A stretch of 43,701 nt of DNA from a virus (lineage: Duplodnaviria > Heunggongvirae > Uroviricota > Caudoviricetes), in IMG/VR virus record IMGVR_UViG_2571042636_000008, positions 1-43,701 of that record; one strand, given 5' to 3'. The position numbers and the translations under genes were made by a program. How positions within the stretch are numbered: the first letter of the stretch is position 1; every line of letters begins with the position of its first letter. This document shows positions 4,735-43,384 of the stretch, one piece after another. The notes under the pieces were generated by a model. That model was not told where the DNA came from. It saw only the letters and a program-made list of their open reading frames with translations, and made no database searches.

Positions 4735-4750
4735 AGAATTCCCCTCAAAG

Positions 4751-8221: not shown

Positions 8222-8443
8222 ATGGAAACTCTTTCTGACCGCGTTAAAAAACGCCGCAATGAACTTAATTTGACCCAAGCCGGTCTTGCTGAGCTTTCTG
8301 GAACCAAACAACAGACTATTCAGCAAGTTGAATCCGGATTAACAAAACGCCCACGCAAGCTCATTGAGCTGGCGACTGCCCTTCAGTGCGAGCCACGCTG
8401 GCTTCTTTTTGGAGAGCAAGGGAATAAAACCAATGCCGCCTAA
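8222..8443 (+). CDS. cro: Cro-like HTH (XRE-family) regulator
   Basis: 73 aa; [26 protein letters not shown]; divergent from cI across the operator region. Confidence 0.8.
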
Positions 8444-8482: not shown

Positions 8483-8704
8483 ATGGAGAGTTCAACGACA
8501 CGCAACAAAGTGGAGGCTCGCAGGATAGAAAGCTGGTTACACAGCCAGATAGCTGAACTGGGAACCACGAATATCGCCAAAGTGGCCGGAGTGAATAAGT
8601 CGACGGTGAGTCGCTGGCGGGAAAGTCTGCTGCCGAACATGTCGCTGCTGCTGGCCATCCTGATTTCTAACAGGCCGGGAGAGAAAGGTGATTTTGAAGC
8701 ATGA
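8483..8704 (+). CDS. cII: CII-like transcriptional activator
   Basis: 73 aa; matches lambda CII core from memory (RIESWL...AELGTTNIAKVAGVNKSTVSRWR...LLLAIL); cII position after cro. Confidence 0.75.
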   Translation: MESSTTRNKVEARRIESWLHSQIAELGTTNIAKVAGVNKSTVSRWRESLLPNMSLLLAILISNRPGEKGDFEA

Positions 8705-15963: not shown

Positions 15964-16100
15964 GCCGTGACGTTATCGAACGCATCCGCGACCGCTGGCA
16001 AAAGCTTCGCCTCCTGCGTAGCCGCGGCACCGTGCTGGTCGACTACAAAATATTACGCAATTTCGTCCGTATCTATAAGCGCCTGGGAGAAGCAGCATGA
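15960..16100 (+). CDS. Small basic ORF (46 aa) translationally coupled between rusA and Q
   Basis: ATG 15960 overlaps rusA stop (ATGA); its stop overlaps the Q start (ATGA); [46 protein letters not shown]; below the track's size cut-off. Confidence 0.35.
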
Positions 16101-16786
16101 CAGCTCAATACTTGGAATTTGTTCGCCAGCAGCTGATAGTGGCCACCGCCGATCTGAGTGGTGCGACGAAAGGGCAACTGGTAGCTTTTGCAGAGAACGC
16201 GCAATTTACCGCTACGGCGCGCAGCCGTGGCCGGAAGAAGGTGTATAGCGAGGTGAAGCAAAAAATGGTTAACCCGGATGGACCGCCGATGAGCGGCAGC
16301 CAGTCCCGCGCTAAGGGTTCCTCAATCGCTCTCGTTCTGCCCGTTGAATACTCGACAGCCAGCTGGCGCCGCGCCCTCCTGTCGCTGGAAGACCACCAGA
16401 AATCCTGGTTGCTGTGGAACTACAGCGACAATATCCGCTTTGAGTATCAGGTAGCGATAACACAGTGGGCATGGGAAGAATTCCGTGATCAACTCGGCGC
16501 TAAGAAAGTGGCCGGCAAGACGATGGAGCGGCTGAAGAAACTGATATGGCTGGCGGCACAGGACGTGAAAGCAGAGCTGGCGGGTAAGTATGTATATCAG
16601 CACCAGGACCTTGCAGCCCTGTGTGGCGTTAAGCCTGATAACTGGTGCCATAACTACGCTGATTACTGGCGGGCTATGTGCGCCATTTTTAAGCGGCTTG
16701 ATAGCGACTCTCTTCTCTGTGCTGTGAGAACACGATCACAACAAAAAGCGACTTTTTCGCAGCAGGGTCTTGCAAAAGTCAATTAA
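16097..16786 (+). CDS. Late-gene antiterminator Q-like protein
   Basis: 229-aa ORF in Q position, followed by promoter/terminator-rich gap, tRNAs and lysis genes; family from memory. Confidence 0.7.
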   Translation: MTAQYLEFVRQQLIVATADLSGATKGQLVAFAENAQFTATARSRGRKKVYSEVKQKMVNPDGPPMSGSQSRAKGSSIALVLPVEYSTASWRRALLSLEDHQKSWLLWNYSDNIRFEYQVAITQWAWEEFRDQLGAKKVAGKTMERLKKLIWLAAQDVKAELAGKYVYQHQDLAALCGVKPDNWCHNYADYWRAMCAIFKRLDSDSLLCAVRTRSQQKATFSQQGLAKVN

Positions 16787-17439: not shown

Positions 17440-17514
17440 GGGTCAGAAGCACAGCGGTTGTGCGTTCGGCTGTTAACCGAATGGTCGAAGGTTCGAATCC
17501 TTCCTGTCCCGCCA
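17440..17514 (+). tRNA. tRNA-Asn (anticodon GTT), phage-encoded
   Basis: Hand-folded cloverleaf: D stem GCAC/GTGC, anticodon stem TTCGG/CCGAA with loop CTGTTAA, T arm GAAGG-TTCGAAT-CCTTC, 3' CCA; one T:T mismatch in acceptor stem and A at position 8. Confidence 0.6.
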
Positions 17515-17519
17515 AATTA

Positions 17520-17596
17520 GCGCCATTAGCTCAACCGGAGAGAGCAATAGCCTTCTAAGCTATCGGTTTCAGGTTCGAGTCCTGAATGGTGCACCA
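17520..17596 (+). tRNA. tRNA-Arg (anticodon TCT)
   Basis: Hand-folded cloverleaf: acceptor GCGCCAT/ATGGTGC, D stem GCTC/GAGC, anticodon loop CTTCTAA, T arm TCAGG-TTCGAGT-CCTGA, CCA; resembles E. coli argU from memory. Confidence 0.8.
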
Positions 17597-19072: not shown

Positions 19073-19208
19073 CACCCCGCAACCGGAAATCCCCGACAAC
19101 CTGACGTGGGGCCAGAGCCTGGATTTAAACGTCAGTCTGCTATCAGCGCTTGGCCAGTGCAACAGGGATAAGGCCGATATCAGGCAAGCAGAATCAAAAC
19201 GTCAGTAG
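18957..19208 (+). CDS. Rz1-like outer-membrane lipoprotein spanin (o-spanin), +1 frame overlapping the Rz 3' end
   Basis: Lipobox LAQLSGC, Pro-rich mature region [19 protein letters not shown]; starts inside Rz and extends past its stop. Confidence 0.6.
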   Translation: MMIALIALCLLAQLSGCSNTRTVYVKVPVVPLPASLTADTPQPEIPDNLTWGQSLDLNVSLLSALGQCNRDKADIRQAESKRQ

Positions 19209-28067: not shown

Positions 28068-28068
<1 letters not shown>

Positions 28069-28989: not shown

Positions 28990-28992
28990 AAC

Positions 28993-30138
28993 ATGGCACA
29001 GGGCTTACCTGTTTCCAATGTCGTTAACGTTGACGTCATCATGTCACCGGTAGCGGCAACGGGGCGAAACTTCGGTGCGCTCCTCATTTTGGGAACCTCT
29101 ACCGTTATTCCGGTTACCGAGCGCATTCGCCAGTATTCGGCCATTGAAGATATCGGCGATGATTTTGGCGTTGACTCCCCGGAATACGAAGCAGCGACCA
29201 TCTTCTTTTCACAATCACCAAAACCCACGCTGGTCTATATCGGCCGTTGGGCGAAGACGCTGGCGGAAGAAGAGGCCGGGACGGTGGAAACCTTGCTACA
29301 GGCCGTTAATGCCTGCCTTCAGTATACCAACTGGTACGGGCTGGCAATTGCCGACAGCGCCGATCTGGTTGAGGCTGACGTGATTTCCGTTGCTGCTGCT
29401 ATTGAGGCATCCAGCTTAAGCCGCATTCTGGCCGTTACCACTGCTGATGTGAATGTGCTGGTGGCCGGAAATACCGACAATATCGGCTACAAACTGAAAG
29501 CCGCTGGCTATGCCCGCACATTCTGGCAGTACAGTTCCAGCAGCAAATACGCCGCTATCTCGGCCTTTGGCCGCGCATTCACGGTGAATTTCACCGGCAG
29601 CAATACCACGATCACACTGAAGTTTAAAACCGAGCCTGGTATTACCTACGAGACGCTGACAACCGCACAGGCCGCAGCCATTGATGCCATTAACGGTAAC
29701 GTCTACGTCTACTACGCCAACGATACGGCAATTATCCAGCAGGGTGTGATGGCGAACGGTGATTTCTTTGATGAGCGGCATGGCCTGGACTGGCTGCAGA
29801 ACTACGTTCAGACCAATCTCTATAACCTGCTTTACACCTCGGCCACCAAAATCCCGCAGACCGACGCAGGCGTAACCCGGTTAATGACCAACGTCGAAGC
29901 CTCACTGGATCAGGCGGTAAATAACGGCCTCATTGCTCCGGGTGTCTGGAACGGTGGCCCGATTGGCCAGATTGAATCCGGGGATACCCTGACCAAGGGT
30001 TACTACGTCTACGCCGACGCGGTAGCTAACCAGGCTCAATCCGACAGGGAAGCGCGTAAGTCGCCGGTAATTCAGGCGGCGATCAAGCTGGCTGGCGCTA
30101 TTCATTATGGCGACGTGCAGATCAATGTGGTGCGATAA
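28993..30138 (+). CDS. Tail sheath protein (DUF3383-like)
   Basis: 381 aa; followed by tube, chaperone and tape measure; family from memory. Confidence 0.6.
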
Positions 30139-30147
30139 GGAGCGACC

Positions 30148-30591
30148 ATGAGCGGAACCTATAGTTTTATTGACGTCTCGGCATCCCTGACGGGCCCAAC
30201 CGGCAGTATCGATCTGGGCTGCGGCTCGGCGAACTCCGAAGAAGGTATTACGGTTGCGATGACCGAGGCAAAAAACACCATGACCGTCGGCGCCGATGGT
30301 GAGGTGATGCACAGCCTGCACGCCGGTAAGAGCGGCACTATCACGGTAACTTTGCTGAAAACCTCCCCGGTAAACAAAAAGCTCTCGCTGATGTACAACG
30401 CACAGAGCCTGTCCTCGGCGACGTGGGGCAATAACGTCATCGTCATTCGCAACAAAGTATCAGGTGATACCACTACAGCGCGTTCTTGTGCTTTCCAGAA
30501 GCAACCCGATCACGCTAACGCCAAAGTCGGCAATACGGTTTCCTGGGTCTTTGACTGCGGCAAGATTGATCAGCTGCTTGGGGAGTTTTAA
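30148..30591 (+). CDS. Tail tube protein (DUF3277-like)
   Basis: 147 aa with AAGGAG RBS, between sheath and chaperone. Confidence 0.6.
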   Translation: MSGTYSFIDVSASLTGPTGSIDLGCGSANSEEGITVAMTEAKNTMTVGADGEVMHSLHAGKSGTITVTLLKTSPVNKKLSLMYNAQSLSSATWGNNVIVIRNKVSGDTTTARSCAFQKQPDHANAKVGNTVSWVFDCGKIDQLLGEF

Positions 30592-30594
30592 CGG

Positions 30595-31014
30595 ATGGAA
30601 TTTGAAATCAAAGGGGTTAATTACCGAACCGCCAAACTTGACGTATTCCAGCAACTGAAGGTCAGCCGTAAGCTGCTGCCGGTGCTGGCCGGGCTCGTTA
30701 GTGAATTTTCCACGCTGAAAGCGCAGGCCGCTGCGGGTAACTCTGGTGCAGTGCTGGAAAGCGTACTGCCGAAAATTGCCGATACGCTGGCCGCGCTGCC
30801 GGATGAGGACGTTAACGCGGTGATTCATCCGTGCCTGGGCGTTGTTATGCGCCAGCATGAAAAAGGGTGGGTGAAAATTTTCGATCAGGGCGCGCTGATG
30901 TTCGACGATATCGACCTGTTCACGATGCTGCAGTTGGTGGCGCGGGTGGTCGCCGACAGCCTGGGAAATTTTTTGAAAGAACTCCCCGGCAGCGGGACGC
31001 CTACCCAGCCATAG
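30595..31014 (+). CDS. Tail assembly chaperone (short, zero-frame product)
   Basis: 139-aa ORF immediately upstream of tape measure gene. Confidence 0.6.
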   Translation: MEFEIKGVNYRTAKLDVFQQLKVSRKLLPVLAGLVSEFSTLKAQAAAGNSGAVLESVLPKIADTLAALPDEDVNAVIHPCLGVVMRQHEKGWVKIFDQGALMFDDIDLFTMLQLVARVVADSLGNFLKELPGSGTPTQP

Positions 31015-31208
31015 GTCCTGTCCTGGAATCCATGCAAGAAGGTGAGGATTTCCTGATGCGTCCGGTGGATGCCGGGCTTATCCCTTACACCGCCCTGAAA
31101 GATGGATCAGTAGACCTGGCTGATATTGCCCGTATGAATGACTGGCTGGACCTGAAAGCCGATAACGAAAACCGTATAGCGAAATGGAGAGAGGCTAATG
31201 AACGCTGA
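30595..31208 (+). CDS. Tail assembly chaperone, frameshift-extended product (gpGT-like)
   Basis: Joining the zero frame to the -1 frame at 30969-30975 gives about 204 aa; conserved chaperone-frameshift-tape measure synteny. Confidence 0.5.
30969..30975 (+). other. Putative -1 programmed ribosomal frameshift slippery heptamer T TTT TTG
   Basis: XXXYYYZ heptamer in zero frame near chaperone 3' end; the -1 frame stays open to 31208, ending at the tape-measure start. Confidence 0.55.
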
Positions 31209-33114
31209 AACGCTCAAGGACTTTCTGATCTCGCTTGGGTTCAAAGTTGATGAGGCTGGCGCCAGAAAATTCGATGCCGTCGTTGCCGGGACAACGCTTA
31301 AAGCGATTGAACTGGGCGTCAAAGTTGAGGCGGCGGCACTTTCCGTCGTTGCATTCACCGCGAAAATTGCCAGCGGTCTCGACGACCTGTACTGGGCCTC
31401 TCAGCGCACAGGCGCGACGGTGGAGGGCATTAAGCAGATTGGGTATGCGGTTAGTCAGGTTGGCGGCAGTGTCGACGGGGCCCGCGGCTCTCTCGAAAAT
31501 CTTGCCAGGTTCATGCGTAACAATCCCGGCGCTGAGGGTTTTCTGAACCGGCTGGGGGTTCAAACGCGTGATGCCAGCGGTAACATGCGGGATATGGCGA
31601 CGATCTTTACCGGCGTCGGCCAGCGTCTTAGCAGCATGCCGTATTACCGCGCGAACCAGTACGCTCAGATGCTGGGTCTGGATGAAAACACCCTGATGGC
31701 AATGCGTCGCGGTATCGGCCAGTTTAGTGGCGAATACACCGCGATGGCGAAGGCGATCGGCTATAACGCTGATGTGGCCGCCGTCAGCTCCAATAAATTC
31801 ATGACCTCGCTGCGCTTCTTTGGGCTGATGGCAGGCATGGCGCGGGATAAAATCGGCTCCAGTCTCGCTGATGGACTTGCTGGCTCTCTGGACAGGCTGC
31901 GTCGCCAGATCCTGGAAAACTTCCCGAAAATTGAAGGCGCTATAACCGGTACCGTGAAAGGCATTCTCTGGGCTGGCGAGATGGTAGGCAGGGTAATTTA
32001 CCGCCTTATTCAGCTGGGTCAGAGTATCAGCGACTGGTGGGACTCTCTTGATAAGCAGTCGCAGCAGCTGATCGAACTAATTGGAGCGCTAACCGCAGCG
32101 TGGTGGATGCTCAACCGCGCTATGCTCGCATCGCCGATTACGTGGGTTCTCGGTCTTGCCGCTGCCATAGCTTTGCTATGGGAGGATTACCAGACCTGGA
32201 AGGAGGGCGGTAAGAGCCTCATTGACTGGGGTAAATGGAAGCCTGAAGTAGACGCAGCACTGAAGATGGTCGGTGACCTGAAACAGACTGTCCTCGATCT
32301 AGGAAAAGCGCTGGCAAAGCTGCTCAATATCGACCCTAAATCCTGGTCTTTGAAATGGGATTTCAGCAACTTCATTACCCAGATGGGTGAGTTTAGCAAG
32401 ATGCTGAGTATGATCGGCGACCTGCTTAACGCTATCAAGGACGGTCGCTGGTCGGATGCTGCAAGCATTGGCAGGGCTCTTCTCAAACAAGGCAGTAACC
32501 AGCCTGATGCGCTGCCCGGCGTTTCTGACAGTGCCAATAGCGCAGCTGACTGGATAAAGGATAAGACAGGATTTGACCCGCGCAGCATAGGCCGTTTCTT
32601 CCGTGGCGAGGGGAATACGCTTGCAGATCGCAACAATAACCCCGGTAATATTCGGCCCGTAGGCGGTGGTGGCTTTCGTGCGTTTGGTTCTGCGCTGGAA
32701 GGCTGGGAGGCCATGAAAAACCAGCTCATGCGGTACTTTACTGGTAAAACGACCGGGCGCCGCCTGCAGACTATCATGGATATCGTCAGCACCTGGGCAC
32801 CTGCGGCCGATAACAACGATCCTGCCAAATATGCCCGTGATGTTGCTGGCTGGATGGGGGTATCGCCGACGGCAGCATTAAACCTGTCCGACCCCAATAC
32901 GATGGCTATGCTCATGCAGTCTATGGCCCGCAAAGAGGGGTATTCGAACTGGAATAGCCCGCTTGCCCATCAGGCTGCTGGAGCGCAGGTGAATCAGCAA
33001 AACACCTACAACATCTATGGCGGTAATGCTCAGGAAATTGGGCAGGAAGTCAGTCGCCGCCAGCTTGATGCTAATGCCAGGGTGCTGAGAAATAACCAAA
33101 CTGGAGCAGGATGA
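31198..33114 (+). CDS. Tail tape measure protein
   Basis: 638 aa, largest tail gene after the chaperone; helical N-terminal part with hydrophobic segment. Confidence 0.8.
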   Translation: MNAETLKDFLISLGFKVDEAGARKFDAVVAGTTLKAIELGVKVEAAALSVVAFTAKIASGLDDLYWASQRTGATVEGIKQIGYAVSQVGGSVDGARGSLENLARFMRNNPGAEGFLNRLGVQTRDASGNMRDMATIFTGVGQRLSSMPYYRANQYAQMLGLDENTLMAMRRGIGQFSGEYTAMAKAIGYNADVAAVSSNKFMTSLRFFGLMAGMARDKIGSSLADGLAGSLDRLRRQILENFPKIEGAITGTVKGILWAGEMVGRVIYRLIQLGQSISDWWDSLDKQSQQLIELIGALTAAWWMLNRAMLASPITWVLGLAAAIALLWEDYQTWKEGGKSLIDWGKWKPEVDAALKMVGDLKQTVLDLGKALAKLLNIDPKSWSLKWDFSNFITQMGEFSKMLSMIGDLLNAIKDGRWSDAASIGRALLKQGSNQPDALPGVSDSANSAADWIKDKTGFDPRSIGRFFRGEGNTLADRNNNPGNIRPVGGGGFRAFGSALEGWEAMKNQLMRYFTGKTTGRRLQTIMDIVSTWAPAADNNDPAKYARDVAGWMGVSPTAALNLSDPNTMAMLMQSMARKEGYSNWNSPLAHQAAGAQVNQQNTYNIYGGNAQEIGQEVSRRQLDANARVLRNNQTGAG

Positions 33115-33689
33115 TGGATATTCTTTCTACTCTCTTTCAGCAGCAGAGCAGGCGGATCGGGCTGATAGTCCCCAGTGTTGTTATTTCGGAAAAGCACGAT
33201 GACTCGCTTGAAATAACCGAGCATCCCGTAGAGGTCGGCGCAGCAATTTCCGACCATGCATTTCGACGTCCTTCGGAAGTGGTAATGCAGGTCGGTTTCG
33301 CTGGTGGCGGTTCCTTGCTTGACTTTGTAGATACGTCTTCTCTTGGGCTGAGCGTAGGTATTGGCCCGAAGGAGACGTATCAGGAACTGTTAAATCTGCA
33401 GAGCAGCAGGGTGCCTTTAGATGTGGTGACCGGTAAGCGGATTTACACCAATATGCTGATCCGTGCGCTTGAGGTCACTACCGACAGGACGTCGGAAAAT
33501 ATTCTCTCTGCCGTGCTGACGCTCCGGGAAGTGATTATCACAAGCACAACCACCACGCAGGTGGCTCCAAAGTCCAATATGAAGTTAGGGGCGAACACCT
33601 CAGCCGTGCAAAACTCCGGGGTGAAAACGCCAGTGCAAAAAAATGAATCAATATTGAGCCGGTTAAGTGGCTTTGTAGCGGGAGGGTAA
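33111..33689 (+). CDS. Tail/baseplate-associated protein
   Basis: 192-aa ORF, ATGA overlap with tape measure. Confidence 0.5.
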   Translation: MMDILSTLFQQQSRRIGLIVPSVVISEKHDDSLEITEHPVEVGAAISDHAFRRPSEVVMQVGFAGGGSLLDFVDTSSLGLSVGIGPKETYQELLNLQSSRVPLDVVTGKRIYTNMLIRALEVTTDRTSENILSAVLTLREVIITSTTTTQVAPKSNMKLGANTSAVQNSGVKTPVQKNESILSRLSGFVAGG

Positions 33690-33992
33690 ATGACGATCAG
33701 CGAAATCCCTCTTTCCCCGGAAAACCAGCGATTCTCCATATCTGTGGCAGGTCAAAGTCTGCAAATGGCTGTGACCTGGCGTGCTGCTTTCTGGTGTCTG
33801 GATATTATGGATAGCAGCGGTGCGGACCTGATAAAGGGGATCCCGCTTATCACCGGCGCCGACCTGCTGGCGCAGTATCGCTATCTCGGGCTTGGCTTTT
33901 CGCTTTATGTTGGCTGTGACAACCAGTCCAGCGAAAATCCCACTGAGGCCGATCTGGGGATTTACAGCCATCTTTATGCGGTAACGGAGTAA
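33690..33992 (+). CDS. Tail/baseplate-associated small protein
   Basis: 100-aa ORF with GGGAGGG RBS. Confidence 0.5.
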   Translation: MTISEIPLSPENQRFSISVAGQSLQMAVTWRAAFWCLDIMDSSGADLIKGIPLITGADLLAQYRYLGLGFSLYVGCDNQSSENPTEADLGIYSHLYAVTE

Positions 33993-33994
33993 AA

Positions 33995-35056
33995 ATGTCT
34001 CAGAACTGGATGCGGCACTTCGAATTGCAGTTAGTCGATTCGAAGGGGAACGCTACTGATTTTGGTAGCTTCAAGGTCACTTTTACTATCGACTGGTTTA
34101 ACCTCAGCAGCGAAACGCGAGTAGGTACTTTCAAAATCTATAACCTTTCAGCTGATACCGTAAACCGGATCGTCGGTGAGGAATTCTCCCGGATTAGGGT
34201 TATCGCTGGATACGATGGCATTGCAGCTGACGTTCCCGCCAGTCAGGTAGGCGTCGCCAGGACAGTAAACCCCGATGAAGTCGGGCAGATGGACAGTCGA
34301 AATTATGGGCTGATTTTCGACGGGGAAATCCGGTACACCATCACAGGGAAAGATAACCCCGTTGATAGCTTTGTCCTCATTCAGGCGGCTGATTCTGACC
34401 GGGCATTCGCTACCTCGATCACTGCGCAGACGCTGGCGGCTGGCTATACGGTCTCTGACGTCAATGCAGTGCTAATGAAGGACTTCAACGCTAACGGGGC
34501 CACGGAAGGGAATACCCCTACCATGCCTGCAACGGTGTTTCCTCGCGGCAGGGTGCTTTTTGGTATGACCCGGCATCTGATGGATAACGTCGCCGAGCAA
34601 TGCAAGGCTGACTGGATGTTTGTCGACGGCAAGCGGGAAATGGTGGCGAAAAATGAGTTTGTTCACGAAGCCATTAAACTGAACAGCGCCACCGGCCTTG
34701 TAGGTATGCCTCAGCAGACCATTGGTAGTGGCGTTAACGTCCGCTGCCTGATTAACCCTAACATCCGCGTTAATGGCCTGATCGAGCTGAATCAGGCTTC
34801 TGTATTCCGTACCGTGCTGGGAAATAACGATATCGCCATGACGCAAGGGCGTATCACTGACCAGAACAACAACGGAAACATCACCATTGAAGGCACGACT
34901 GCGCAGCCTGCCAGTATTGCGACTGACGGCGTTTATATTGTCCGTGGCATTATGTACACTGGCGACACAAGGGGCCAGGCGTGGTACATGGATATGATGT
35001 GTGAAGCGCGTGGGTCCACGGATCTTTACTCCCAAGGCGCACTTAATCGGGGATAA
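33995..35056 (+). CDS. Baseplate hub/tail protein
   Basis: 353-aa ORF in baseplate block. Confidence 0.55.
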   Translation: MSQNWMRHFELQLVDSKGNATDFGSFKVTFTIDWFNLSSETRVGTFKIYNLSADTVNRIVGEEFSRIRVIAGYDGIAADVPASQVGVARTVNPDEVGQMDSRNYGLIFDGEIRYTITGKDNPVDSFVLIQAADSDRAFATSITAQTLAAGYTVSDVNAVLMKDFNANGATEGNTPTMPATVFPRGRVLFGMTRHLMDNVAEQCKADWMFVDGKREMVAKNEFVHEAIKLNSATGLVGMPQQTIGSGVNVRCLINPNIRVNGLIELNQASVFRTVLGNNDIAMTQGRITDQNNNGNITIEGTTAQPASIATDGVYIVRGIMYTGDTRGQAWYMDMMCEARGSTDLYSQGALNRG

Positions 35057-35059
35057 AAA

Positions 35060-35398
35060 GTGAAAATCTTCACCATCGTTTTTATCGCATTCGCATCCTT
35101 TGGGGCTACCGCCGGTGGCTTCACATCATATTGTGGACCTTACACTTTAGTAGCAAGGGAAGGTGATGTAAGCATTATCAATGGAGAGCGAGTCACCTCT
35201 CAGAAAATAAAATTATTGGGGGAGGACGGCATCAAGATAAACATGGGGATGATGCCTGCCAAAGACGGCAACAACTACGGCTTTCAGTACATCCACCGTC
35301 CTGGTAGTGAATCTCGCTTTCTGAACGTCCAGCTTCTGCAAAACAGCATGGATGCGCCGAAGATTATCGGATCCTTCCCCTGCGTCAAGGTGAAGTGA
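35060..35398 (+). CDS. Moron: small secreted (periplasmic) protein
   Basis: GTG start with GGGGA RBS; signal-peptide-like N-terminus MKIFTIVFIAFASFGATAGG; two Cys; AT-rich relative to flanking baseplate genes. Confidence 0.55.
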   Translation: MKIFTIVFIAFASFGATAGGFTSYCGPYTLVAREGDVSIINGERVTSQKIKLLGEDGIKINMGMMPAKDGNNYGFQYIHRPGSESRFLNVQLLQNSMDAPKIIGSFPCVKVK

Positions 35399-35400
35399 TT

Positions 35401-35847
35401 ATGGAATTTTTCGCAATTATCCTCTTCTTTTTGGCAATAGCCATTGTTACTAGATGGAATAACCATAAGAAAGCTAAAAAGCGGAAAGAAGAAGATAACT
35501 TTATCCATAGTATTGATTATTCTTATCGTCGTCCTGAGGTTAAATCTAAGCCTAAAAATGGTCGTAGAAGAAGCAAGGAGGAAATGCTTGCTGATGGAAT
35601 CGCATATCAAAAATTGATGGGTGATGATTTTAGAAAGTCAGCAAAAGCTACGCAAATCCAGGCGGAAAGAGTCGGATCTAAGAAATATATTTGGCGTGGT
35701 TCTGATTGCTGCCCAAATTGCGATAAGCAGAATGGGAAAACATTCTCTTGGGCAAGACCTCCAAAAACAGGTCACCCAGGAGAAGGAAAATTATGTCCTA
35801 ACGGTTACTGTCGCTGTTGGGCTGAGGTGATAATTCCGAAACCGTAA
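35401..35847 (+). CDS. Moron: membrane-anchored protein with MuF-C-terminal-like Cys/His motif
   Basis: N-terminal TM helix EFFAIILFFLAIAIV; basic linker; C-terminus YIWRGSDCCPNCD...KTFSWARPPKTGHPGEGKLCPNGYCRCWAEVIIP parallels the MuF C-terminus at 22904..23686; strongly AT-rich; terminator follows. Confidence 0.55.
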   Translation: MEFFAIILFFLAIAIVTRWNNHKKAKKRKEEDNFIHSIDYSYRRPEVKSKPKNGRRRSKEEMLADGIAYQKLMGDDFRKSAKATQIQAERVGSKKYIWRGSDCCPNCDKQNGKTFSWARPPKTGHPGEGKLCPNGYCRCWAEVIIPKP

Positions 35848-35868
35848 GGCATTACAAAATTCTATAAA

Positions 35869-35891
35869 AAGCCCACCCATGTGGGTTTTTT
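35869..35891 (+). terminator. Rho-independent terminator after the moron cassette
   Basis: CCCAC-ccat-GTGGG followed by TTTTTT. Confidence 0.55.
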
Positions 35892-35909
35892 ATTGCCTGG
35901 AGTAAGGTA

Positions 35910-36563
35910 ATGGCAATATCCGATAAAACCCGCAGTGGGGCGCTTGCTGAGGTTCTGGCGTCAGAGAGAAGGACGCTCAACGAACAACTTCGCGTTGCAA
36001 TGCCCGGCATCATCCAGTCTTTTGATCCTGACGCAGTGACCGCCGTGGTGCAGCCGGCGATCCGCTACATCGAGCGCGATAACGACGGCAACAAATTAAC
36101 GAATGATTATCCACTGCTGGTAGATGTTCCTGTCGTTTTCCCTCGCGGCGGAGGCTGCACACTGACTTTTCCTGTTAAGGCTGGTGATGAATGCCTTGTT
36201 ATCTTTGCGGACCGCTGTATTGATTTCTGGTGGCAGAGTGGGGGTATTCAGGAGCCGGTAGACGAGCGCATGCATGATTTATCCGATGCCTTCTGCATTG
36301 TCGGCCCGCAGTCGCAGGCGAAGAAAATCGGCGGTATCAGCACCAGTGCGGTAGAGCTGCGCAGTGATGACGGGGAAACAAAGTTGAGCCTTAATCCTGC
36401 CAGTGGAGCTATCAACGGCACGGCGCCGGGAGGTTTTAACCTGAACGGGCTTAAAATTCTCTCGGACGGCCGCCTGCAACTGGTGGATGGCTCAATCGTT
36501 GATAAGCATACGCATGGTGGCGTTGAGCCTGGTGGCAGCAGTACAGCACCACTCGGAGGATGA
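35910..36563 (+). CDS. Baseplate central spike protein (gpV/Gp138-like)
   Basis: 217 aa, Gly-rich C-terminus with HTHGG; GGAGTAAGG RBS. Confidence 0.6.
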   Translation: MAISDKTRSGALAEVLASERRTLNEQLRVAMPGIIQSFDPDAVTAVVQPAIRYIERDNDGNKLTNDYPLLVDVPVVFPRGGGCTLTFPVKAGDECLVIFADRCIDFWWQSGGIQEPVDERMHDLSDAFCIVGPQSQAKKIGGISTSAVELRSDDGETKLSLNPASGAINGTAPGGFNLNGLKILSDGRLQLVDGSIVDKHTHGGVEPGGSSTAPLGG

Positions 36564-36564
36564 T

Positions 36565-36918
36565 ATGCGATACCGTCGAGAAGATGACGATGGGGATTAC
36601 ACCTTCGGTCAGGGCGATGATACCTGGCTGGTTAACTCACCCGAGGCTGTAGCGCAGGCCATTAAAACGCGCTTCCTGCTCTGGTACGGTCAGTGGTTTC
36701 TGGACACCACAGAAGGTACGCCATGGATTCAGTCCGTTCTGGGTAAGCAAAAACCGGATACCTACAACCTCGCTATCCGTAAGCGGATCCTCGAAACGCA
36801 GGGGGTTAGCTCAATCACTGCATTTAACACCACCGTTGACGGTACCACGCGCCGTGTAACGTTCACAGCAACGGTGGAAACCATCTACGGGACAACCACA
36901 GTAACTTCGGAGGCGTAA
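36565..36918 (+). CDS. Baseplate protein (gpW/gp25-like)
   Basis: Start ATG 36565 (MRYRREDDDGDYTFGQG...), about 117 aa, between spike and J-like genes. Confidence 0.5.
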   Translation: MRYRREDDDGDYTFGQGDDTWLVNSPEAVAQAIKTRFLLWYGQWFLDTTEGTPWIQSVLGKQKPDTYNLAIRKRILETQGVSSITAFNTTVDGTTRRVTFTATVETIYGTTTVTSEA

Positions 36919-38114
36919 TGGCTCTGGACCTCGACACACTCGGCTTATCGGCAACGGTAACCGCTGAGGGGATAAGTGCGCCTGATTATCAGACGATACT
37001 CAGCACCCTGATTAGCTATTTTCAGCAGATTTATGGCAGTGATGCCTATCTCGACCCGGACAGCAAAGACGGCCAGATGGTCGCTCTGGTGGCTCTGGCC
37101 ATTCATGATGCCAACAACACGGCTATTTCTGTTTACCGGTCATTTTCTCCGTCGACGGCGCTGGACGATGCATTAACCAGTAACGTCAAAATTAACGGCA
37201 TCGCTCGCCGGGCTGCGACAAATTCTACGGTCGATGAGCTGATCGAAGGTGAGGCCGGAACGTTAATCACAAACGGCTCTGTGAAAGATGCCAACGGCAT
37301 CATCTGGAATCTTCCTGCTCAGGTGACAATTGGTATTGATGGGACGGTTATTGCTACAGCGACGTGTTCTGTTGCTGGCGCTGTGGCGGCCCCTGCCGGG
37401 TCAGTCAATAAGATAAACACCCCGACACGTGGCTGGGTATCAGTAACTAACCCTCAAGCGGCTACCGTTGGCGTTGCTGCCGAAACAAATGCTGAATTGC
37501 GTGTCCGGCAATCACAGAGCGTTGCTTTACCATCTCTGACGCCGTTTGAGGCGGTAGATGGTGCGATAGCAAATATCAGCGGCGTAACCCGTCACAAGCT
37601 GTATGAGAACGATACAGATACCACTGATGCAAATGGCCTGCCGCCGCACTCAATCGCCGCCATTGTAGAAGGTGGTGATGCGACGGTCATTGCAAACAGC
37701 ATTCGTGGTGTGAAAGGGCAGGGCGTAACACCCTACGGTAGTACGGTGATTGTTGTGCCTGATAAGTACGGAAACCCTCACCCGGTAGGTTTTTCAAGGC
37801 CGGTCGATGTACCCATTTACGTCAAAATCACTATCGAACCCCTTACGGGCTACACATCCCAGGTCGGCGAAGAGATAAAGGCGGCTGTATCTGCCTACAT
37901 TAACTCACTGGCAATCGGCGCCAGCGTTCTTCTCAGTCGCGTTTACTCACCGGCTAACCTTGGTGTTGTCAGTGGTGGTAATGCCAGGTATTACGACATT
38001 ACCGAGTTGCTGATCGGGACGTCCGCCGGTGGCGTAGCCGCGGCAAACGTGGATATTGCCTTTGACCAGTCAGCATCCTGCGCCGTCAGCAATATTAATC
38101 TGGTGGTCTCATGA
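36918..38114 (+). CDS. Baseplate J-like protein
   Basis: 398-aa ORF, size and position typical of gpJ/gp6-like wedge proteins. Confidence 0.65.
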   Translation: MALDLDTLGLSATVTAEGISAPDYQTILSTLISYFQQIYGSDAYLDPDSKDGQMVALVALAIHDANNTAISVYRSFSPSTALDDALTSNVKINGIARRAATNSTVDELIEGEAGTLITNGSVKDANGIIWNLPAQVTIGIDGTVIATATCSVAGAVAAPAGSVNKINTPTRGWVSVTNPQAATVGVAAETNAELRVRQSQSVALPSLTPFEAVDGAIANISGVTRHKLYENDTDTTDANGLPPHSIAAIVEGGDATVIANSIRGVKGQGVTPYGSTVIVVPDKYGNPHPVGFSRPVDVPIYVKITIEPLTGYTSQVGEEIKAAVSAYINSLAIGASVLLSRVYSPANLGVVSGGNARYYDITELLIGTSAGGVAAANVDIAFDQSASCAVSNINLVVS

Positions 38115-38884
38115 GCAGATACACTGACCGCATAACAAACTACCACGCCGGTAAACCAAAGTTCTTTGCCCACGTCGACCTGTCCACCAGGCCACTGAGT
38201 GATGTTTCCGATGCCATGTCACGGCTAATACCCGATTTTGATATTGATACCGCCATTGGCGTGCAGCTTGACGTTGTGGGCGAATGGGTTGGTCGTTCCC
38301 GTCGCGTGGCTACACCGGTAACCGGGATTTATTTTTCGTGGGACACCGAGCGGGTTGGCTGGGACCAGGGGATTTGGCAGGGCCCATATGACCCAAACGA
38401 TGGGTTTATCGATCTCAGTGATGAAATATATCGGCTAATGCTGAAGGTGAAAGTGGCGATAAACAACTGGGATGGTCAGAACGATTCGCTTCCTTCAATT
38501 CTTGATGCCGCCCTTGCCGGGTCCGGGATCCGCATGACTATTGTCGACAATCAGGATATGTCGATTTCCATCTGGATACTCGGTGACCCATCGGTATCCC
38601 TAAGTGAAATAGACCGGTTAATTCTGGATAGCGCCGTCAATAAAGGCCCCTTTATCGCATTACCGGCAGGTTACGTACCATCGCGCTATGACATTAACCC
38701 GATTGACCAGGTTAACAGCGAGCTATGGTGGGCGATTCAAAACGGTTATATGACGGTTAAGGCCGCCGGAGTTCGTGTCCGTGAAATAGAGACCGTCAGT
38801 AATGGTTATCAGTTTTTTGGCTTCGATATCGAAAATGACTATATCGCTGGTTTCGACCGCGGGTCATGGGGAGAGAGATTTTAA
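38111..38884 (+). CDS. Baseplate/tail-fibre-associated protein (DUF2612-like)
   Basis: 257-aa ORF, ATGA overlap, precedes fibre gene. Confidence 0.5.
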   Translation: MSRYTDRITNYHAGKPKFFAHVDLSTRPLSDVSDAMSRLIPDFDIDTAIGVQLDVVGEWVGRSRRVATPVTGIYFSWDTERVGWDQGIWQGPYDPNDGFIDLSDEIYRLMLKVKVAINNWDGQNDSLPSILDAALAGSGIRMTIVDNQDMSISIWILGDPSVSLSEIDRLILDSAVNKGPFIALPAGYVPSRYDINPIDQVNSELWWAIQNGYMTVKAAGVRVREIETVSNGYQFFGFDIENDYIAGFDRGSWGERF

Positions 38885-39765
38885 TGGCGACTAACGATTT
38901 TAAGCCCTTCGCTACAGGTAGCGGGGCAAACGTATTATCACAAGCTGATTATGATGCACTGTCGGCCAGAACAACTGGCTTTTTAAGTGGCAAAGCCTCT
39001 TCGGCACAGGTCAACAAAGCTTTAAGGCAGGCATCAACTATTGCGGCGGTTGTGGCGCAGTTTATTTCTGATAACAGCGGCGATGACACCCTTGATAATG
39101 GTAATTTGCCTACCTTGCTGGCCAGTCTCGAAAGCGCCCTTCTCAAGTCCTCCCCTGGGCGGTTACAGAATATCGTTAGCTTTACCGCAAATGGGACCTA
39201 CACCCCATCTCCAGGAACCAAACATGTAAAAGTTATTGTTACTGGCGGTGGTGGTGGCGGGGGTGGTTGTCAGGGAACTTCCGGAGCTGAATCAATTTCA
39301 GGTGGTGGTGGCGGTGCTGGCGGTACGGCCATTGGTTATTTTGCCGTTACTGAATCCAGCTACGCAGTCACTGTAGGTGCTGGTGGTTCTGCTGGCGTTG
39401 GTGCTGTGCAGGGTGGAACAGGCGGAACCTCAATCATTAACGGCATTAGCGGATTGGGCGGAGATGGTGGTCAGAAATCAGGGATCACTACGCTGGCTGG
39501 TGGGAAAGGCGGTGTTTCTATTGGTGGCTCGGTTAACCTTCCCGGAGGTTACGGTACTGATGGGCAAAATGGCTCTCTGATTATCCCCGGCAATGGCGGA
39601 TCATCATATTGGGGCGGCGGTGGTCGTGGGGGCGCACGCGGGGGCGTGGCAGGGGATTGTTATGGTGCCGGTGGTGGTGGTGCATATGATGCTGCCATGT
39701 CTGGTAACTCCTACAATGGCGGACAGGGGAAAGCAGGGATTGTATATATTGAGGAATATTCTTAA
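38884..39765 (+). CDS. Glycine-rich tail fibre protein
   Basis: Conserved fibre-like N-terminus MATNDFKPFATGSGANVLSQADYDAL...; C-terminal Gly-rich repeats (GGGGGGG, GGxGG). Confidence 0.65.
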   Translation: MATNDFKPFATGSGANVLSQADYDALSARTTGFLSGKASSAQVNKALRQASTIAAVVAQFISDNSGDDTLDNGNLPTLLASLESALLKSSPGRLQNIVSFTANGTYTPSPGTKHVKVIVTGGGGGGGGCQGTSGAESISGGGGGAGGTAIGYFAVTESSYAVTVGAGGSAGVGAVQGGTGGTSIINGISGLGGDGGQKSGITTLAGGKGGVSIGGSVNLPGGYGTDGQNGSLIIPGNGGSSYWGGGGRGGARGGVAGDCYGAGGGGAYDAAMSGNSYNGGQGKAGIVYIEEYS

Positions 39766-39934: not shown

Positions 39935-39983
39935 ATCATCAAGAATAAATAACATTATCTACATATCTATACATTACCAATCA

Positions 39984-40006: not shown

Positions 40007-40016
40007 TGGGGCGACC

Positions 40017-43000
40017 ATGAGTGAATACGATACCGGCAATCCTGTGCCGTCTGCATCAATGCCTGATGCATGGGATAATATGCAGTCTATTGACAAGTTC
40101 GTTAATAGCAGCGATGAAACCATTACCACACGCACGGGCGAACAGTTAGATACTTTGCATGGCGTTAATGTTAAGGCGGACAACCAGCTAACGCAGCAGC
40201 AAGCAGACTTTGAAACCTCGCAAGAAGAAAGGGATGCTGTAGTTGAGGAAACCAGGCAGAACCTGATCCCTCTCAGCCGGCAGTATATGACACTGGCCGC
40301 GGCACAGGCAGATATTGCTAATATCCCCGAGGGGAGCACTACGTATTACCGAAGCCCTGACGATAGCGCTCTTGCGATAGAGGCAATCAACAACGCCGGT
40401 ACGCTGACCGCAACCGGGAGAAAAATGCCAGCGTACTCTTCTTTGCGCAGAGGCAACATTTTATTCGACGCATTTAATGAATATTCCTCAAGCCTTTTAA
40501 CATTCGCTAACTGGGATTGGTATAAAGGCGCTACGCCAACATTTTCTACTACTGATGTTAATTTGCCGCTTCCAACACCTGTTATTCAAGCTTCTGGTGT
40601 AACATCGTTTGATAAATATTACGATGTGTCAAAATTACAGGTAAAACCAGGAGACACTTTAGCTTTCTCTGTTTTGGTATGGTTCGAGAACGCTGGAGGC
40701 AAGTTACAGATTTATTGGCTTGATTCAGCAGGAGTAACCATCACTACAGGGGAGGCCTCTCCACTGGTTGCTGGTATATCCTCTCCGGTTGTGGTCATTG
40801 CTGTGCCATCTGGCGCATCATCCATACGAATTCGGGTGCAAAACACTGTGTCAGGGGCGTTCAAAATCGGTGTCTATGCCGCAGCTATTGGTGATGTTAC
40901 TCCTGAATTCACAAGGTCTTTCCCTTCAAAAGCGTACCAGGAGGCATTGGGTACCCCTGATAACCTCGTGTACGACCCTTTTGGCGAGATGCTTTCCGTT
41001 CGTCCTAAGCAAGGACTTCCTGCAGGCGTGGTTGACGCCATGAGTTACGCAGGAACATTGATTCAGAACAGCGCAAATTCACCATGGGGTAAGACCGGGA
41101 TCCAAAACACGTCAGGAGTTGGTGCTGATCGTATTATTTCTCTCAGTTCGATGGGGGTTAAGCCGGGAGACACAATCACTGTCCGTCTGGCTGCATGGTT
41201 CGCGTCAACGGGTGGCACGTTTCAGGTTTTCTGTCGTAATGCATCCGGAGTACTTTCTTCGGCAACTATTGCCGCATCAGCATCCGGCTTTAATGATGGA
41301 AGTACCACGCTGACAATACCAGCATCAACGACATACCTTACGCTTCGCGCATCAGGGGCTATGGTCAAGGAGCTGGTTGCCATAGGTGTAGCTTTCGGAC
41401 GATCTCGCCCTGAGTTTATTTACGGTAGCCTTCCAGCAGAGTATTCAGGATACCAGCGCCAGCAGATTAACCTGTGGCCTGATCCCTGGTATCGCCGCTA
41501 CGAGTGCGGGGAAACGTGTATTGATGGTTGGGGTCCTGCTCAAGTAGCAGGGGTTTCACTACCAGCATATGTTGCGGATTATTCTGGCAGCCCGTTTCTT
41601 AGGAAAAAATCTCTGATTATCCCAGTAGGTGGTGGTCAGACGGATATTAACATTTCAGCAAAGCGGCTTGGACTGCGTGCTGGAGATTCGCTGACAGTAG
41701 CGCTGGGTGTGGTATCGTCTCAGGCAATCAACGTGGCAGCATATTTCCGGACGGCTAGCGGGACTGTTATTAGTGACAGTTCGTCTCAGTTGTTCCAGTT
41801 CCCAACCCAGCAATATCAGACTCTGGTTCGCACAATAGCTATCACCCAGACTATTGTTGATACGGCTGGATATCTGCAAATCCGCCTTATGAATGGGCAG
41901 ACTGTTGGCGCTGCAGGTGTTTATGTTGTTGCCAGGGGGCTCTTTGTTGGGAATGGCTCTCCTGTACTGAGTGATGATACGTACCGACAGGATGTCGATT
42001 ACACAACTTCCAGAGCATTCACGTTAAATCAGGATTCACTCAGAGAGACACATAAGCGCCTGATGAACAGGCGGCTTTCTCAGTCAGCAACACTGGTAAC
42101 AGCGCACATTGGCGATAGCTGGACTCACCTGTGGAACCGATGGAGCGGAATTTTTGCCGGAAAAATGCAGGCTGACTATGGCAGTGCAGGTATCGGCTAT
42201 ATCGGATTTGGCTATCCGTCTGAGGCGGGTTTCGGGCAGTATAACGGCAATATACTTGGTCAGATAACTTTGACCAAAACAGGAACATGGACTCCGACAT
42301 ATGCGGCAGCACAGAGCGCAGATATTTGTAGCGTCTCGTCTTCTGATACCACCGCTACTTTCAGGGCGAACGGTATACCGGCAAATGCATCGTCAGTCCG
42401 CCTTTTTGCTAAACCTCAGGGGAGTGTTAAATACAGCACAGATGGTGGAGTTAACTGGACAACTATCGACCTGAGCACGTTCACTGACCTTGCGGTTGTC
42501 AGCCTCACGGTACCGGCAACAGCTTTCAATATCTGGTTCAGTCCGGTATCAGGAACCGTTGAACTGTACGGTCTGGATGTGCAGACCGCGACAGATGGTG
42601 TCCGGTCTCACAAGCTGGGTGCGACGGGGAGTTCTGCTCAACAATGGGCGGCGCAGGTTACCAGCGCAACATGGAAAGCAGCATTCACCGCGCTGGCCCC
42701 CAATCTGGTGACAATTCTGCATGGGACCAATGACCAGACATCATCCCGTGATCCATCCGCGTTTGCTGCCGATATTCAGACGATAATCACAGCAGTTCGC
42801 ACTGCATGCCCGTTGGCTGATGTTCTGGTGATCATGCCATGTGAAAACCAGAGGAATAACAATGTGGCAATGGCGGCGTATGCGTCTGTTGTACGGGATG
42901 TTTGTGCGCTAAACAGGGTGGCTTATCACAATCTCCAGATTGACTACGGAGACAAGCCATCTGATTACGCATCGACATCTCCACGCAACTGGTTCAATGC

Positions 43001-43073
43001 TGATGGAATCCATCCTGACCCTGCAACTGGAGGTGGGCTGCCGATCGTTTCTGCTGTTTTGAAGTTAATGTAA
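40017..43073 (+). CDS. Tail fibre/tailspike with three internal repeat modules and C-terminal SGNH/GDSL-type hydrolase (esterase) domain
   Basis: 1018 aa; three divergent ~115-aa repeats each containing (V/L)KPGD(T/S)...WF...; SGNH block I HIGDSWTH and block V DGIHPD near C-terminus. Confidence 0.75.
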   Translation: MSEYDTGNPVPSASMPDAWDNMQSIDKFVNSSDETITTRTGEQLDTLHGVNVKADNQLTQQQADFETSQEERDAVVEETRQNLIPLSRQYMTLAAAQADIANIPEGSTTYYRSPDDSALAIEAINNAGTLTATGRKMPAYSSLRRGNILFDAFNEYSSSLLTFANWDWYKGATPTFSTTDVNLPLPTPVIQASGVTSFDKYYDVSKLQVKPGDTLAFSVLVWFENAGGKLQIYWLDSAGVTITTGEASPLVAGISSPVVVIAVPSGASSIRIRVQNTVSGAFKIGVYAAAIGDVTPEFTRSFPSKAYQEALGTPDNLVYDPFGEMLSVRPKQGLPAGVVDAMSYAGTLIQNSANSPWGKTGIQNTSGVGADRIISLSSMGVKPGDTITVRLAAWFASTGGTFQVFCRNASGVLSSATIAASASGFNDGSTTLTIPASTTYLTLRASGAMVKELVAIGVAFGRSRPEFIYGSLPAEYSGYQRQQINLWPDPWYRRYECGETCIDGWGPAQVAGVSLPAYVADYSGSPFLRKKSLIIPVGGGQTDINISAKRLGLRAGDSLTVALGVVSSQAINVAAYFRTASGTVISDSSSQLFQFPTQQYQTLVRTIAITQTIVDTAGYLQIRLMNGQTVGAAGVYVVARGLFVGNGSPVLSDDTYRQDVDYTTSRAFTLNQDSLRETHKRLMNRRLSQSATLVTAHIGDSWTHLWNRWSGIFAGKMQADYGSAGIGYIGFGYPSEAGFGQYNGNILGQITLTKTGTWTPTYAAAQSADICSVSSSDTTATFRANGIPANASSVRLFAKPQGSVKYSTDGGVNWTTIDLSTFTDLAVVSLTVPATAFNIWFSPVSGTVELYGLDVQTATDGVRSHKLGATGSSAQQWAAQVTSATWKAAFTALAPNLVTILHGTNDQTSSRDPSAFAADIQTIITAVRTACPLADVLVIMPCENQRNNNVAMAAYASVVRDVCALNRVAYHNLQIDYGDKPSDYASTSPRNWFNADGIHPDPATGGGLPIVSAVLKLM

Positions 43074-43144: not shown

Positions 43145-43384
43145 ATGCTTCGACAGTCAGACATCGCAGCGGCGTTCCGCGAGTCGGTATTGCGCAGTTC
43201 CAAGGGGTTCCAGTACCTTCACACCCGCGACTTCGTTACCGCGCTGCGCCGGCGCGGCATCCATTTTTCCGAGGTGGAGGCGAACTCCTGGATCGCACGC
43301 GAGCAAACGTATTTCGTCGACAAAACGGCAGAGCATAGTGAAAACTGCCTGTGGATGATGGCCAACATGGGGAGGATTCTGTAA
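43145..43384 (+). CDS. Small SOS-regulated protein of unknown function
   Basis: 79 aa; GGGAGGG RBS; directly downstream of the LexA box; coupled (TAATG) to the UmuD'-like gene. Confidence 0.55.
   Translation: MLRQSDIAAAFRESVLRSSKGFQYLHTRDFVTALRRRGIHFSEVEANSWIAREQTYFVDKTAEHSENCLWMMANMGRIL

Follow-up and report, generated by a model that had tools for sequence, protein, structure and literature searches.

The 43.7-kb window described here, the whole stretch of DNA at positions 1 to 43,701 of the IMG/VR virus record IMGVR_UViG_2571042636_000008, almost certainly unites lambdoid control genes and a contractile-tail virion cassette in one phage, the cassette being one that is swapped as a module between lambdoid backbones. 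The window extends from the stop codon of a minus-strand tyrosine integrase gene at its left edge to the stop codon of a HumD/UmuD'-like gene at its right edge. Judged by this layout, from int to the cargo genes, it is predicted to be a complete temperate phage genome of the type represented by SEN34 and Mulock, which circulates in the gut bacteria Escherichia (E. coli) and Klebsiella, and the corresponding prophage would be expected to be inducible. The lambda gene order (int–xis–recombination–immunity–replication–nin–Q–lysis–virion) is present in the window and matches the statements on synteny with lambda made for Mulock. From the holin gene (17866) to the tailspike gene (43073) all genes lie on the plus strand with short or overlapping junctions, and the lysis genes are followed rightward by terS, terL, portal, MuF-like, DUF2213, major capsid and neck genes, the tail module, the tailspike gene and two cargo genes. 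Gene identities and gene order were read directly from the DNA using the Pfam, PHROGs, Protein Data Bank (PDB) chain, NCBIfam and PADLOC libraries, with tRNAs located by ARAGORN and comparisons made by local BLAST against fetched relatives. The pairing of lambdoid control with a contractile tail is already known, has been published since at least 2017 and is common in enterobacterial prophages; the same overall architecture has turned up independently in the Klebsiella phages Mulock and GZ7, the Salmonella phage SEN34 and the E. coli prophage KFu024.

Contractile tail module

The tail genes, with the tailspike gene after them, occupy positions 28993–43073. The sheath gene opens and the tail-fibre gene closes exactly 28993–39765, the region to which the initial annotation had assigned a joining of lambdoid control circuitry and contractile-tail structural genes. 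These limits fit the tail genes exactly, whereas the lambda-like genes lie outside them, at positions 1–19208.

The first gene of the module (28993..30138) encodes a 381-amino-acid (aa) tail sheath protein of the DUF3383 class (Pfam DUF3383, E = 2.7e-102; phrog_205 'tail sheath', E = 3.5e-128). Among the PDB chains, its product matches the XM1 gp6 sheath (4.1e-38) and, over residues 5–376 and hence essentially full length, the Pam3 sheath (1.4e-22), and it is 65% identical in amino acid sequence to the annotated tail sheath of SEN34. The tail tube gene (30148..30591; Pfam KPP10_Orf10, 1.4e-62; PDB tubes of Pam3 and others, 3e-6 to 4.3e-6) begins 10 nt past the sheath stop codon. It is followed by the gene for the tail assembly chaperone (30595–31014; Pfam Phage_TAC_15, 5.3e-35), which has a −1 frameshift extension to 31208. 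A slippery run, A_AAT_TTT_TTG, is located at 30966–30975, approximately 40 nt before the chaperone stop, and the −1 frame is open to 31208, overlapping the start of the tape-measure gene; frameshifting is predicted from this arrangement, and the Mulock annotation joins the same two frames into a frameshift product. The tape measure (31198..33114; phrog_2276, 5.4e-244) has a C-terminal lytic-transglycosylase-like segment, residues 468–603 of which match endolysin/transglycosylase PHROGs, and a lytic transglycosylase is named in the annotation of relatives.

The baseplate genes begin with a tube initiator, a Dit-like baseplate protein (33111..33689; Pfam Dit_like, 5.5e-33; PDB Pam3 gp17, 1.2e-15), a baseplate plug (33690..33992; Pfam Pam3_gp18, 1.4e-22) and a baseplate hub (33995..35056; phrog_196, 2.5e-81; PDB Pam3 gp19, 2.6e-8, and phi92 gp137). 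The central membrane-puncturing spike of the gp138/gpV class (35910..36563; Pfam PF18352, 5.8e-45, and an Apex motif) matches E217 gp43, phi92 gp138 and Pam3 gp20 in the PDB. It is followed by a sheath initiator of the gp25/gpW class (36565..36918; PDB Pam3 gp21, 1.4e-12, XM1 gp15, 4.3e-9, and other sheath-initiator chains; phrog_120), a baseplate wedge of the J/gp6 class (36918..38114; Pfam Baseplate_J, 1.4e-13; PDB XM1 gp16 and Pam3 gp22) and a second wedge protein (38111..38884; Pfam DUF2612, 5.8e-46; PDB XM1 gp17, 3e-4).

Next are the genes for a tail fibre with a glycine-rich domain (38866..39765; Pfam Gly_rich_2, 4.6e-9; tail-fibre PHROGs) and for a 1018-aa tailspike or side fibre (40017..43073; phrog_38670, E = 0), the C terminus of which is an SGNH/GDSL esterase domain (Pfam Lipase_GDSL_2, 5.2e-14). 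This domain points to deacetylation of a polysaccharide surface receptor. The similarity to Mulock reaches 39072, within the tail-fibre gene, and similarity to PDP110P2 stops at 40430, past the N-terminal anchor of the tailspike; the distal fibres of Mulock and GZ7 also differ.

The order of the tail genes is that of Pam3 gp17–gp22. The predicted products make up a complete simple contractile tail of the Pam3/XM1-like kind, which would be expected to contract. The E-values of the sheath, tube, J, W and spike matches exclude chance, and the sheath-like, tube-like and baseplate J/W/spike-like genes named in the initial annotation were all borne out by the domain and solved-structure searches. 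Homologues of the sheath, tube, tube initiator, plug, hub, spike, sheath initiator and wedge are shared with the minimal myophage tails that have been solved by cryo-EM for cyanophage Pam3 (PDB entries 7yfz and 8hdr), Vibrio phage XM1 (7kh1) and Pseudomonas phage E217 (8eon). However, these matches are distant (E-values of 1e-38 to 1e-6) and the hosts and lifestyles are unrelated; moreover, the window has two extra genes in an island between hub and spike and a different set of fibre and tailspike proteins.

Lambdoid control and lysis genes

The early region opens with the tyrosine integrase gene (1..1260, minus strand; Pfam Arm-DNA-bind_2, 5.5e-24, and Phage_integrase, 2.6e-17), which is 97.7% identical in nucleotide sequence to the integrase genes of Mulock and RothC, and an excisionase gene (1303..1548, minus strand; phrog_539 excisionase, 6.9e-37). 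A Red-type recombination set (3368..5041, minus strand) is composed of exo (3368–3991; PHROG exonuclease, 7.4e-48), bet (3988–4785; PHROG Bet-like, 9.5e-95) and gam (4751–5041; PHROG Gam-like, 7.2e-44).

The CI-type repressor (7424..8119, minus strand) combines a helix-turn-helix (HTH) domain with an S24 self-cleaving peptidase (Pfam Peptidase_S24, 2e-14; HTH_3, 8.6e-8). Translation probably starts at Met 70 of a long open reading frame (ORF), which gives a length equal to that of the RothC 'repressor protein CI'. A spacer of 102 bp separates cI from the divergent gene for a Cro-like HTH repressor (8222..8443, plus strand; Pfam HTH_3, 7.8e-13; cro in the annotation of relatives). The rightward early set continues on the plus strand with the CII activator (8483..8704; Pfam Phage_CII, 9.5e-13), a lambda O-type initiator (8790–9644; Pfam Phage_rep_O, 4.2e-36), a DnaC/IstB-type helicase loader in the place of lambda P (9629–10498; Pfam IstB_IS21, 3.8e-19), a ren gene, NinB (14509–15105; phrog_319, 7.1e-63), a RusA-type resolvase (15538–15963; phrog_34, 5e-56) and the late-gene antiterminator Q (16097..16786; Pfam Phage_antiter_Q, 1.1e-79; phrog_304, 1.9e-97). 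The O and P pair of lambda is incomplete, in that O is present and the gene downstream encodes an IstB/DnaC-type ATPase, not P; replacement of lambda P by other loaders is common among lambdoid phages.

The lysis cassette comprises a holin (17866–18180; holin HP1 family, 2e-5, below the Pfam cutoff), a GH24 endolysin (18177–18686; Pfam Phage_lysozyme, 2.8e-46), annotated as a SAR endolysin in relatives, Rz (18665–19072; Rz PHROG, 3.1e-41) and Rz1 (18891–19208; Rz1 PHROG, 7.5e-29), which overlaps Rz and is not nested in it, all on the plus strand. The lysis proteins of Mulock belong to classes other than those of lambda (Min et al. 2019, PMC6856289).

Exchange of the virion cassette

The two halves of the window have different relatives. 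In a chromosomal prophage of E. coli SCU-308 (NZ_CP053281, 1.50–1.54 Mb), positions 19204–43155 of the window form one alignment of 23,952 bp at 99.84% identity, whereas similarity over positions 1–19203 is 2%. The Klebsiella phage RothC has the opposite pattern: it shares int–xis (97.7%), the immunity region (6605–8753, 97.4%) and the lysis genes (17752–19201, 95.8%), but over the virion block its similarity is approximately 1%, and the tail region does not match at all. In PDP110P2, the virion module is shared at approximately 98%, and the other half is 96% HK106-like, also matching HK022, Sf6 and others. Relatives that share one half at 95–99.8% and none of the other bear out the modular exchange that had been proposed for this DNA. 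Lambdoid phages are classically defined by viable recombination with lambda, and natural recombinants with HK106-like and other lambdoid backbones would give indirect support on this point.

The exchanged unit is the whole 24-kb head and tail cassette, from terS to the tailspike and with the receptor-binding proteins included, rather than the tail alone, which places the joint between lambdoid and myovirus parts at approximately 19.2 kb and not at 28993. At the left joint (19201..19204), the early-side similarity of RothC and GZ7 ends at 19201 and the virion-side similarity of SCU-308 starts at 19204; the joint falls on the Rz1 stop codon, which is TAG in the window and TAA in SCU-308. At the right joint (43155..43156), the identity with SCU-308 breaks off after the initial 11 nt of the gene that opens an SOS cassette. 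The joints are resolved to approximately 3 nt, at gene boundaries, by the limits of the high-scoring segment pairs in the nucleotide comparison. Among 5,426 complete E. coli genomes, the junction of lysis genes and terS recurs five times at 98–98.7% identity and once more at 91.9%; the exact 39-nt string across the left joint is absent from 185,579 GTDB representative genomes.

A hairpin with a perfect 7-bp stem, GAGCCAC-TTCCAGAG-GTGGCTC, and no T-run is located at 19219–19240, at the start of the exchanged block. This hairpin lies between the Rz1 stop and terS, is conserved in both SCU-308 and GZ7, and may serve as a signal for packaging or regulation.

Origin of the combination

Several points count against a lambdoid phage with an exchangeable contractile-tail cassette. 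The phage in the window is known from its genes, and particles have been seen by electron microscopy (EM) in its relatives only. Pairwise comparisons give neither the direction nor the timing of an exchange, and PDP110P2 is an unannotated assembly that could in principle be chimeric. The sole sigma-70-like promoter match after Q (16846–16873) abuts a hairpin and may be spurious; this differs from a simple pR'/tR' layout, and the late promoter is accordingly not located. In the early region, no N-type antiterminator homologue was recognised with Pfam, PHROG or NCBIfam among the ORFs left of cI, and a 144-aa ORF beside cI (6970–7404) has no match in Pfam, PHROG, NCBIfam or PADLOC. Regulation and lysis had initially been called lambda-like as a whole. 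This description stands for gene content and order (cI/cro, cII, O, ren, ninB, rusA, Q and holin/endolysin/Rz/Rz1) and needs qualification for the DnaC-like loader, for the lack of a recognised N homologue, for the holin with its weak HP1 match and for the Rz1 gene outside the nested position.

An old, vertically inherited lineage that has both lambdoid control genes and a contractile tail, with no recent replacement of a siphovirus tail and with mosaicism limited to shuffling within the group, is a possible but rather doubtful account of the whole. The same pairing and gene order are found in SEN34 (sheath 65% identical in amino acid sequence), Mulock, GZ7 and KFu024. RothC and ST15-VIM1phi2.1 share the early region and have virion modules that cannot be aligned with that of the window, yet these modules are of a diverged sheath/hub/J type; RothC was considered as a non-contractile counterpart and rejected, as its PHROG matches show a sheath/hub/J module that is too diverged to align. 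The diverged modules of the same class in RothC and ST15-VIM1phi2.1 indicate that the pairing is an old and well-populated lineage in which cassettes are shuffled, and there is no evidence of a recent siphovirus-tail replacement in this phage. An old lineage is, however, compatible with a recent exchange and does not replace it, given the 99.84% and 2% similarities of SCU-308 to the two parts of the window. The early half of PDP110P2 is HK106/HK022/Sf6-like, and the tails of HK106, HK022 and Sf6 are non-contractile or short. ST11-VIM1phi8.2, which shares early segments at approximately 91%, is a podovirus by transmission electron microscopy (TEM; Bleriot et al., PMC7371120). The incongruence of early and virion halves suggested by the similarity table speaks against an old lineage as the sole explanation.

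The tail genes could otherwise belong to a tailocin, to the remnant of a second, adjacent element or to an assembly artefact, as the absence of the left-joint 39-mer from the GTDB representative genomes might be taken to indicate; this is very improbable, because the head, neck and tail genes are contiguous, intact and on one strand directly after the lysis cassette, the same lysis–terS junction occurs in six complete E. coli genomes (98–98.7% in five, 91.9% in one), and Mulock and GZ7 were deposited as phage isolates. Hardly credible at all is a non-contractile tail in which the DUF3383 protein is not a sheath, an idea in keeping with the Pfam designation of DUF3383 as of 'unknown function' and with the hypothetical status given to the gene by the Mulock authors, and opposed by the full-length match to the Pam3 sheath, the strong match to the XM1 gp6 sheath, the co-occurrence of a sheath initiator, a component peculiar to contractile systems, and the contractile tails seen by EM in Mulock, ST405-OXA48phi1.2 and SEN34. 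With these three relatives, the check by electron microscopy of particles that the initial annotation had named has in effect come out in favour of a contractile tail.

Proposed late transcription and assembly

The gene for Q, a predicted antiterminator, lies directly upstream of the late operon. The spacer between Q and the holin gene contains genes for tRNA-Asn(GTT) and tRNA-Arg(TCT) (17440..17596, plus strand), with terminator-like hairpins on both sides. Four terminator-like sites, at 16875, 17348, 17405 and 17731, are located between Q and the holin gene, and seven such hairpins are found in 16700–19400, compared with 2.9 ± 1.9 in shuffles. The 1.1-kb spacer (16786–17866) also holds a 95-aa minus-strand ORF (17109–17396). 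The tRNA set of this slot is variable, comprising Asn/Phe/Thr/Arg in Mulock, Ile/Arg in RothC, Asn/Thr in SCU-308 and Gly in KFu024; tRNAs between the antiterminator and the holin have been noted in such induced prophages (Bleriot et al., PMC7371120).

In the proposed working of the phage, the lambdoid early region (cI/cro, cII, O and the DnaC-like loader, the nin genes and Q) would decide between lysogeny and lytic growth. RNA polymerase modified by Q most likely passes the terminator-like hairpins and the tRNA genes, reading one long rightward late operon that would include the lysis cassette, the head genes and the Pam3/XM1-like simple contractile tail. The baseplate would form around the hub–spike complex together with the wedge proteins, the tube would grow from the tube initiator to the length of the tape measure, assisted by two chaperone forms, and the sheath would polymerize from the sheath initiator before the terminator caps the tail. 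As such a late operon does not depend on a separate regulator, whatever virion cassette follows the lysis genes would be expressed, which would make the cassette interchangeable. With read-through from a Q-dependent promoter as its only regulatory interface, the 24-kb cassette would be a plug-in unit.

Related phages and prophages

The tail region matches 20 phage records, 12 of which are from Klebsiella. For the early region, the best matches come in part from E. coli chromosomes (57% coverage at 97%) and in part from phages of Klebsiella (47% at 94%).

Mulock (MN098327) resembles the window in its tail genes (27760–39072 at 87.4% nucleotide identity; approximately 87–89% for the tail module), head genes (95–97%) and integrase (97.7%), and has an identical gene order, including the hub–spike island and the frameshifted chaperone. 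It differs in the early region (31% similarity, as identity × coverage; 54% for the whole genome), with another immunity region, a lambda-P-type replication annotation and four tRNAs, and in its fibre tip and tailspike, and it is without the 23725–24147 insert described below. Min et al. (2019, PMC6856289) grew Mulock in soft-agar overlays, identified it as a myophage by negative-stain EM and described it as temperate and partly syntenic with lambda in integration, recombination, lysogeny control, replication and lysis. Mulock and GZ7 are on record as phage isolates, with wastewater and hospital sewage as their sources.

SEN34 (Salmonella, genus Brunovirus) has lambda-like CII, O, P, NinB, NinG, Q and holin genes and the same ordered virion module. 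It differs in its overall sequence (21% whole-genome nucleotide similarity), integrase, immunity region, island genes and fibres, and it carries an O-acetyltransferase moron. Mikalova et al. (2017, PMC5261728) observed a long contractile tail by EM and called the phage 'lambda-like but Myoviridae'. The induced prophage ST405-OXA48phi1.2, with 91.8% identity over 69% of the late region, has Myoviridae morphology by TEM (PMC7371120).

Like the window, the SCU-308 prophage contains a 140-aa head insert, the AT-rich island and the SGNH tailspike. Its early half is unrelated, with genes for a DnaB-like helicase and a holin of the lambda family, another Q and tRNA-Asn/Thr. Its IntS lies beside yfdC and a tRNA-Arg gene, and TorI is found at the opposite end. 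KFu024 (E. coli, NZ_CP091659, 4.012–4.056 Mb) is a sister prophage with 65% similarity over the whole window. It sits between a DUF72 (yecE-like) gene and yecD, with the integrase overlapping the end of the DUF72 gene, and this locus suggests a likely attachment site for integrases of this type.

Among examples published still earlier, the Shigella phages SfV and SfI combine lambdoid organisation with EM-verified contractile tails, mosaicism of left and right halves and tRNAs just downstream of Q (PMC3636060). Nucleotide similarity to SfV or SfI was not found among the matches of the tail module. The tails of these phages are Mu-like and are not known to be of the DUF3383 class.

Head genes, hub–spike island and cargo

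The head and neck genes (19266–28989, plus strand) start with terS (19266–20042; PHROG terS, 2.1e-99). From the PGAP/Mulock annotation of collinear relatives, the following genes were assigned as terL (19993–21393), portal (21631–23082), MuF-like (23138–23686) and a DUF2213 head gene (24203–25405). The major capsid gene (25915–26856; Pfam Major_capside, 2.7e-82) precedes a DUF4054 gene (27146–27565; Pfam DUF4054, 9.9e-23), neck and adaptor genes (27562–28068 and 28068–28454, both from the same annotation) and a neck/tail terminator gene (28447–28989; Pfam Phage_tail_terminator_9, 1.9e-37), for whose product the sequence search of solved structures gave no match. Between the MuF-like and DUF2213 genes, an insert (23687–24152) contains an orphan gene of 140 aa (23725–24147) that has no Pfam, PHROG, NCBIfam or PADLOC match. 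It is present in the SCU-308 and KFu024 prophages under the same protein accession and absent from Mulock, GZ7 and PDP110P2.

The AT-rich island between hub and spike (35060..35847, plus strand) has a GC content of 0.385–0.417, compared with approximately 0.52 in its flanks. Its first ORF (35060–35398) encodes a 112-aa protein with a signal peptide and overlaps the second (35395–35847), whose 150-aa product has an N-terminal transmembrane helix and a Cys-rich domain resembling the MuF C terminus. Neither ORF has a Pfam match above the cutoff or any match in NCBIfam or PADLOC. The island is present in Mulock and SCU-308, the slot is occupied by other genes in GZ7, KFu024 and SEN34, and it is unaligned in PDP110P2; the phage records contain a full-length copy of the 150-aa protein in Mulock alone. 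The island genes are probably morons rather than core tail parts. A promoter and terminator scan of the island gave nothing above shuffles and no plus-strand sites, and the classic moron signature of promoter, gene and terminator is therefore not supported. It is unlikely that the island provides a new envelope-acting function, such as superinfection exclusion or an aid to ejection, in a hot-spot slot. As a separate point of this unlikely reading, the 99.84% cassette, present in two unrelated backbones, would represent a very recent transfer of a virion module between lambdoid lineages with different integration sites.

At the right end, a near-consensus LexA box, TACTGTATGTTTGTACAGTA, lies at 43107–43126 inside a longer palindrome, upstream of a 79-aa gene. 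Positions 43102–43701 apparently form an SOS-controlled cargo cassette at the prophage end, of which this 79-aa gene (43145–43384, plus strand), following the LexA box, is the first and a 105-aa HumD/UmuD'-like gene (43384–43701, plus strand; NCBIfam HumD, 1e-10, below the cutoff) the second. The cassette is common to RothC and others, and in SCU-308 all that is left is the box together with 11 nt from the start of the 79-aa gene. This cassette, the AT-rich island, the 140-aa orphan and the SGNH tailspike are the most unusual features of the window, although peripheral to the pairing of control genes and tail, and no known defence family was matched by those of their genes that the search covered.

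Some further genes were observed in the early region. The 144-aa ORF at 6970–7404 (minus strand) has a hydrophobic helix at its N terminus. It follows cI on the same strand after a gap of 20 nt, the position of rex in lambda, and is conserved in both RothC and GZ7; it may encode an exclusion or conversion function expressed from the prophage. A Dam-like N6-adenine methyltransferase (2812–3378, minus strand) and a Mom-like DNA modification protein (12338–12802, plus strand; phrog_1384, 1.2e-39) are possible anti-restriction cargo. The Pfam, NCBIfam and PADLOC searches were uninformative for the ORFs at 5043–6014 (minus strand), 11484–11990 and 12778–13578.

Classification and significance

The one-directional similarities to the window, calculated as identity × coverage, are 58% for GZ7, 54% for Mulock, 47% for PDP110P2, 21% for SEN34 and 21% for RothC. 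The genus guideline of the International Committee on Taxonomy of Viruses (ICTV) is 70% whole-genome nucleotide identity. No deposited phage exceeds 58% whole-genome similarity to the window, which is below this 70% level.

The initial annotation had regarded the mosaicism as relevant to classification, and PDP110P2 (OZ035745.1) is a case in point. The closest of the phage records in its virion genes, it is filed under Wanchaivirus (Hendrixvirinae), a group of HK97-like lambdoid phages with non-contractile tails, and the label evidently followed its HK106-like half despite the sheath-encoding module. Either the taxonomy was taken from the early genes only or the assembly is chimeric.

The significance of the combination is mainly one of bookkeeping, and no new biological question is opened by it. 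Tools keyed on early genes can place a sheath-encoding phage in a non-contractile lambda-like genus, and tools keyed on virion genes separate phages that have a common immunity system. The window represents an unusually clean exchange of a whole cassette and provides a teaching or benchmark case for mosaicism.

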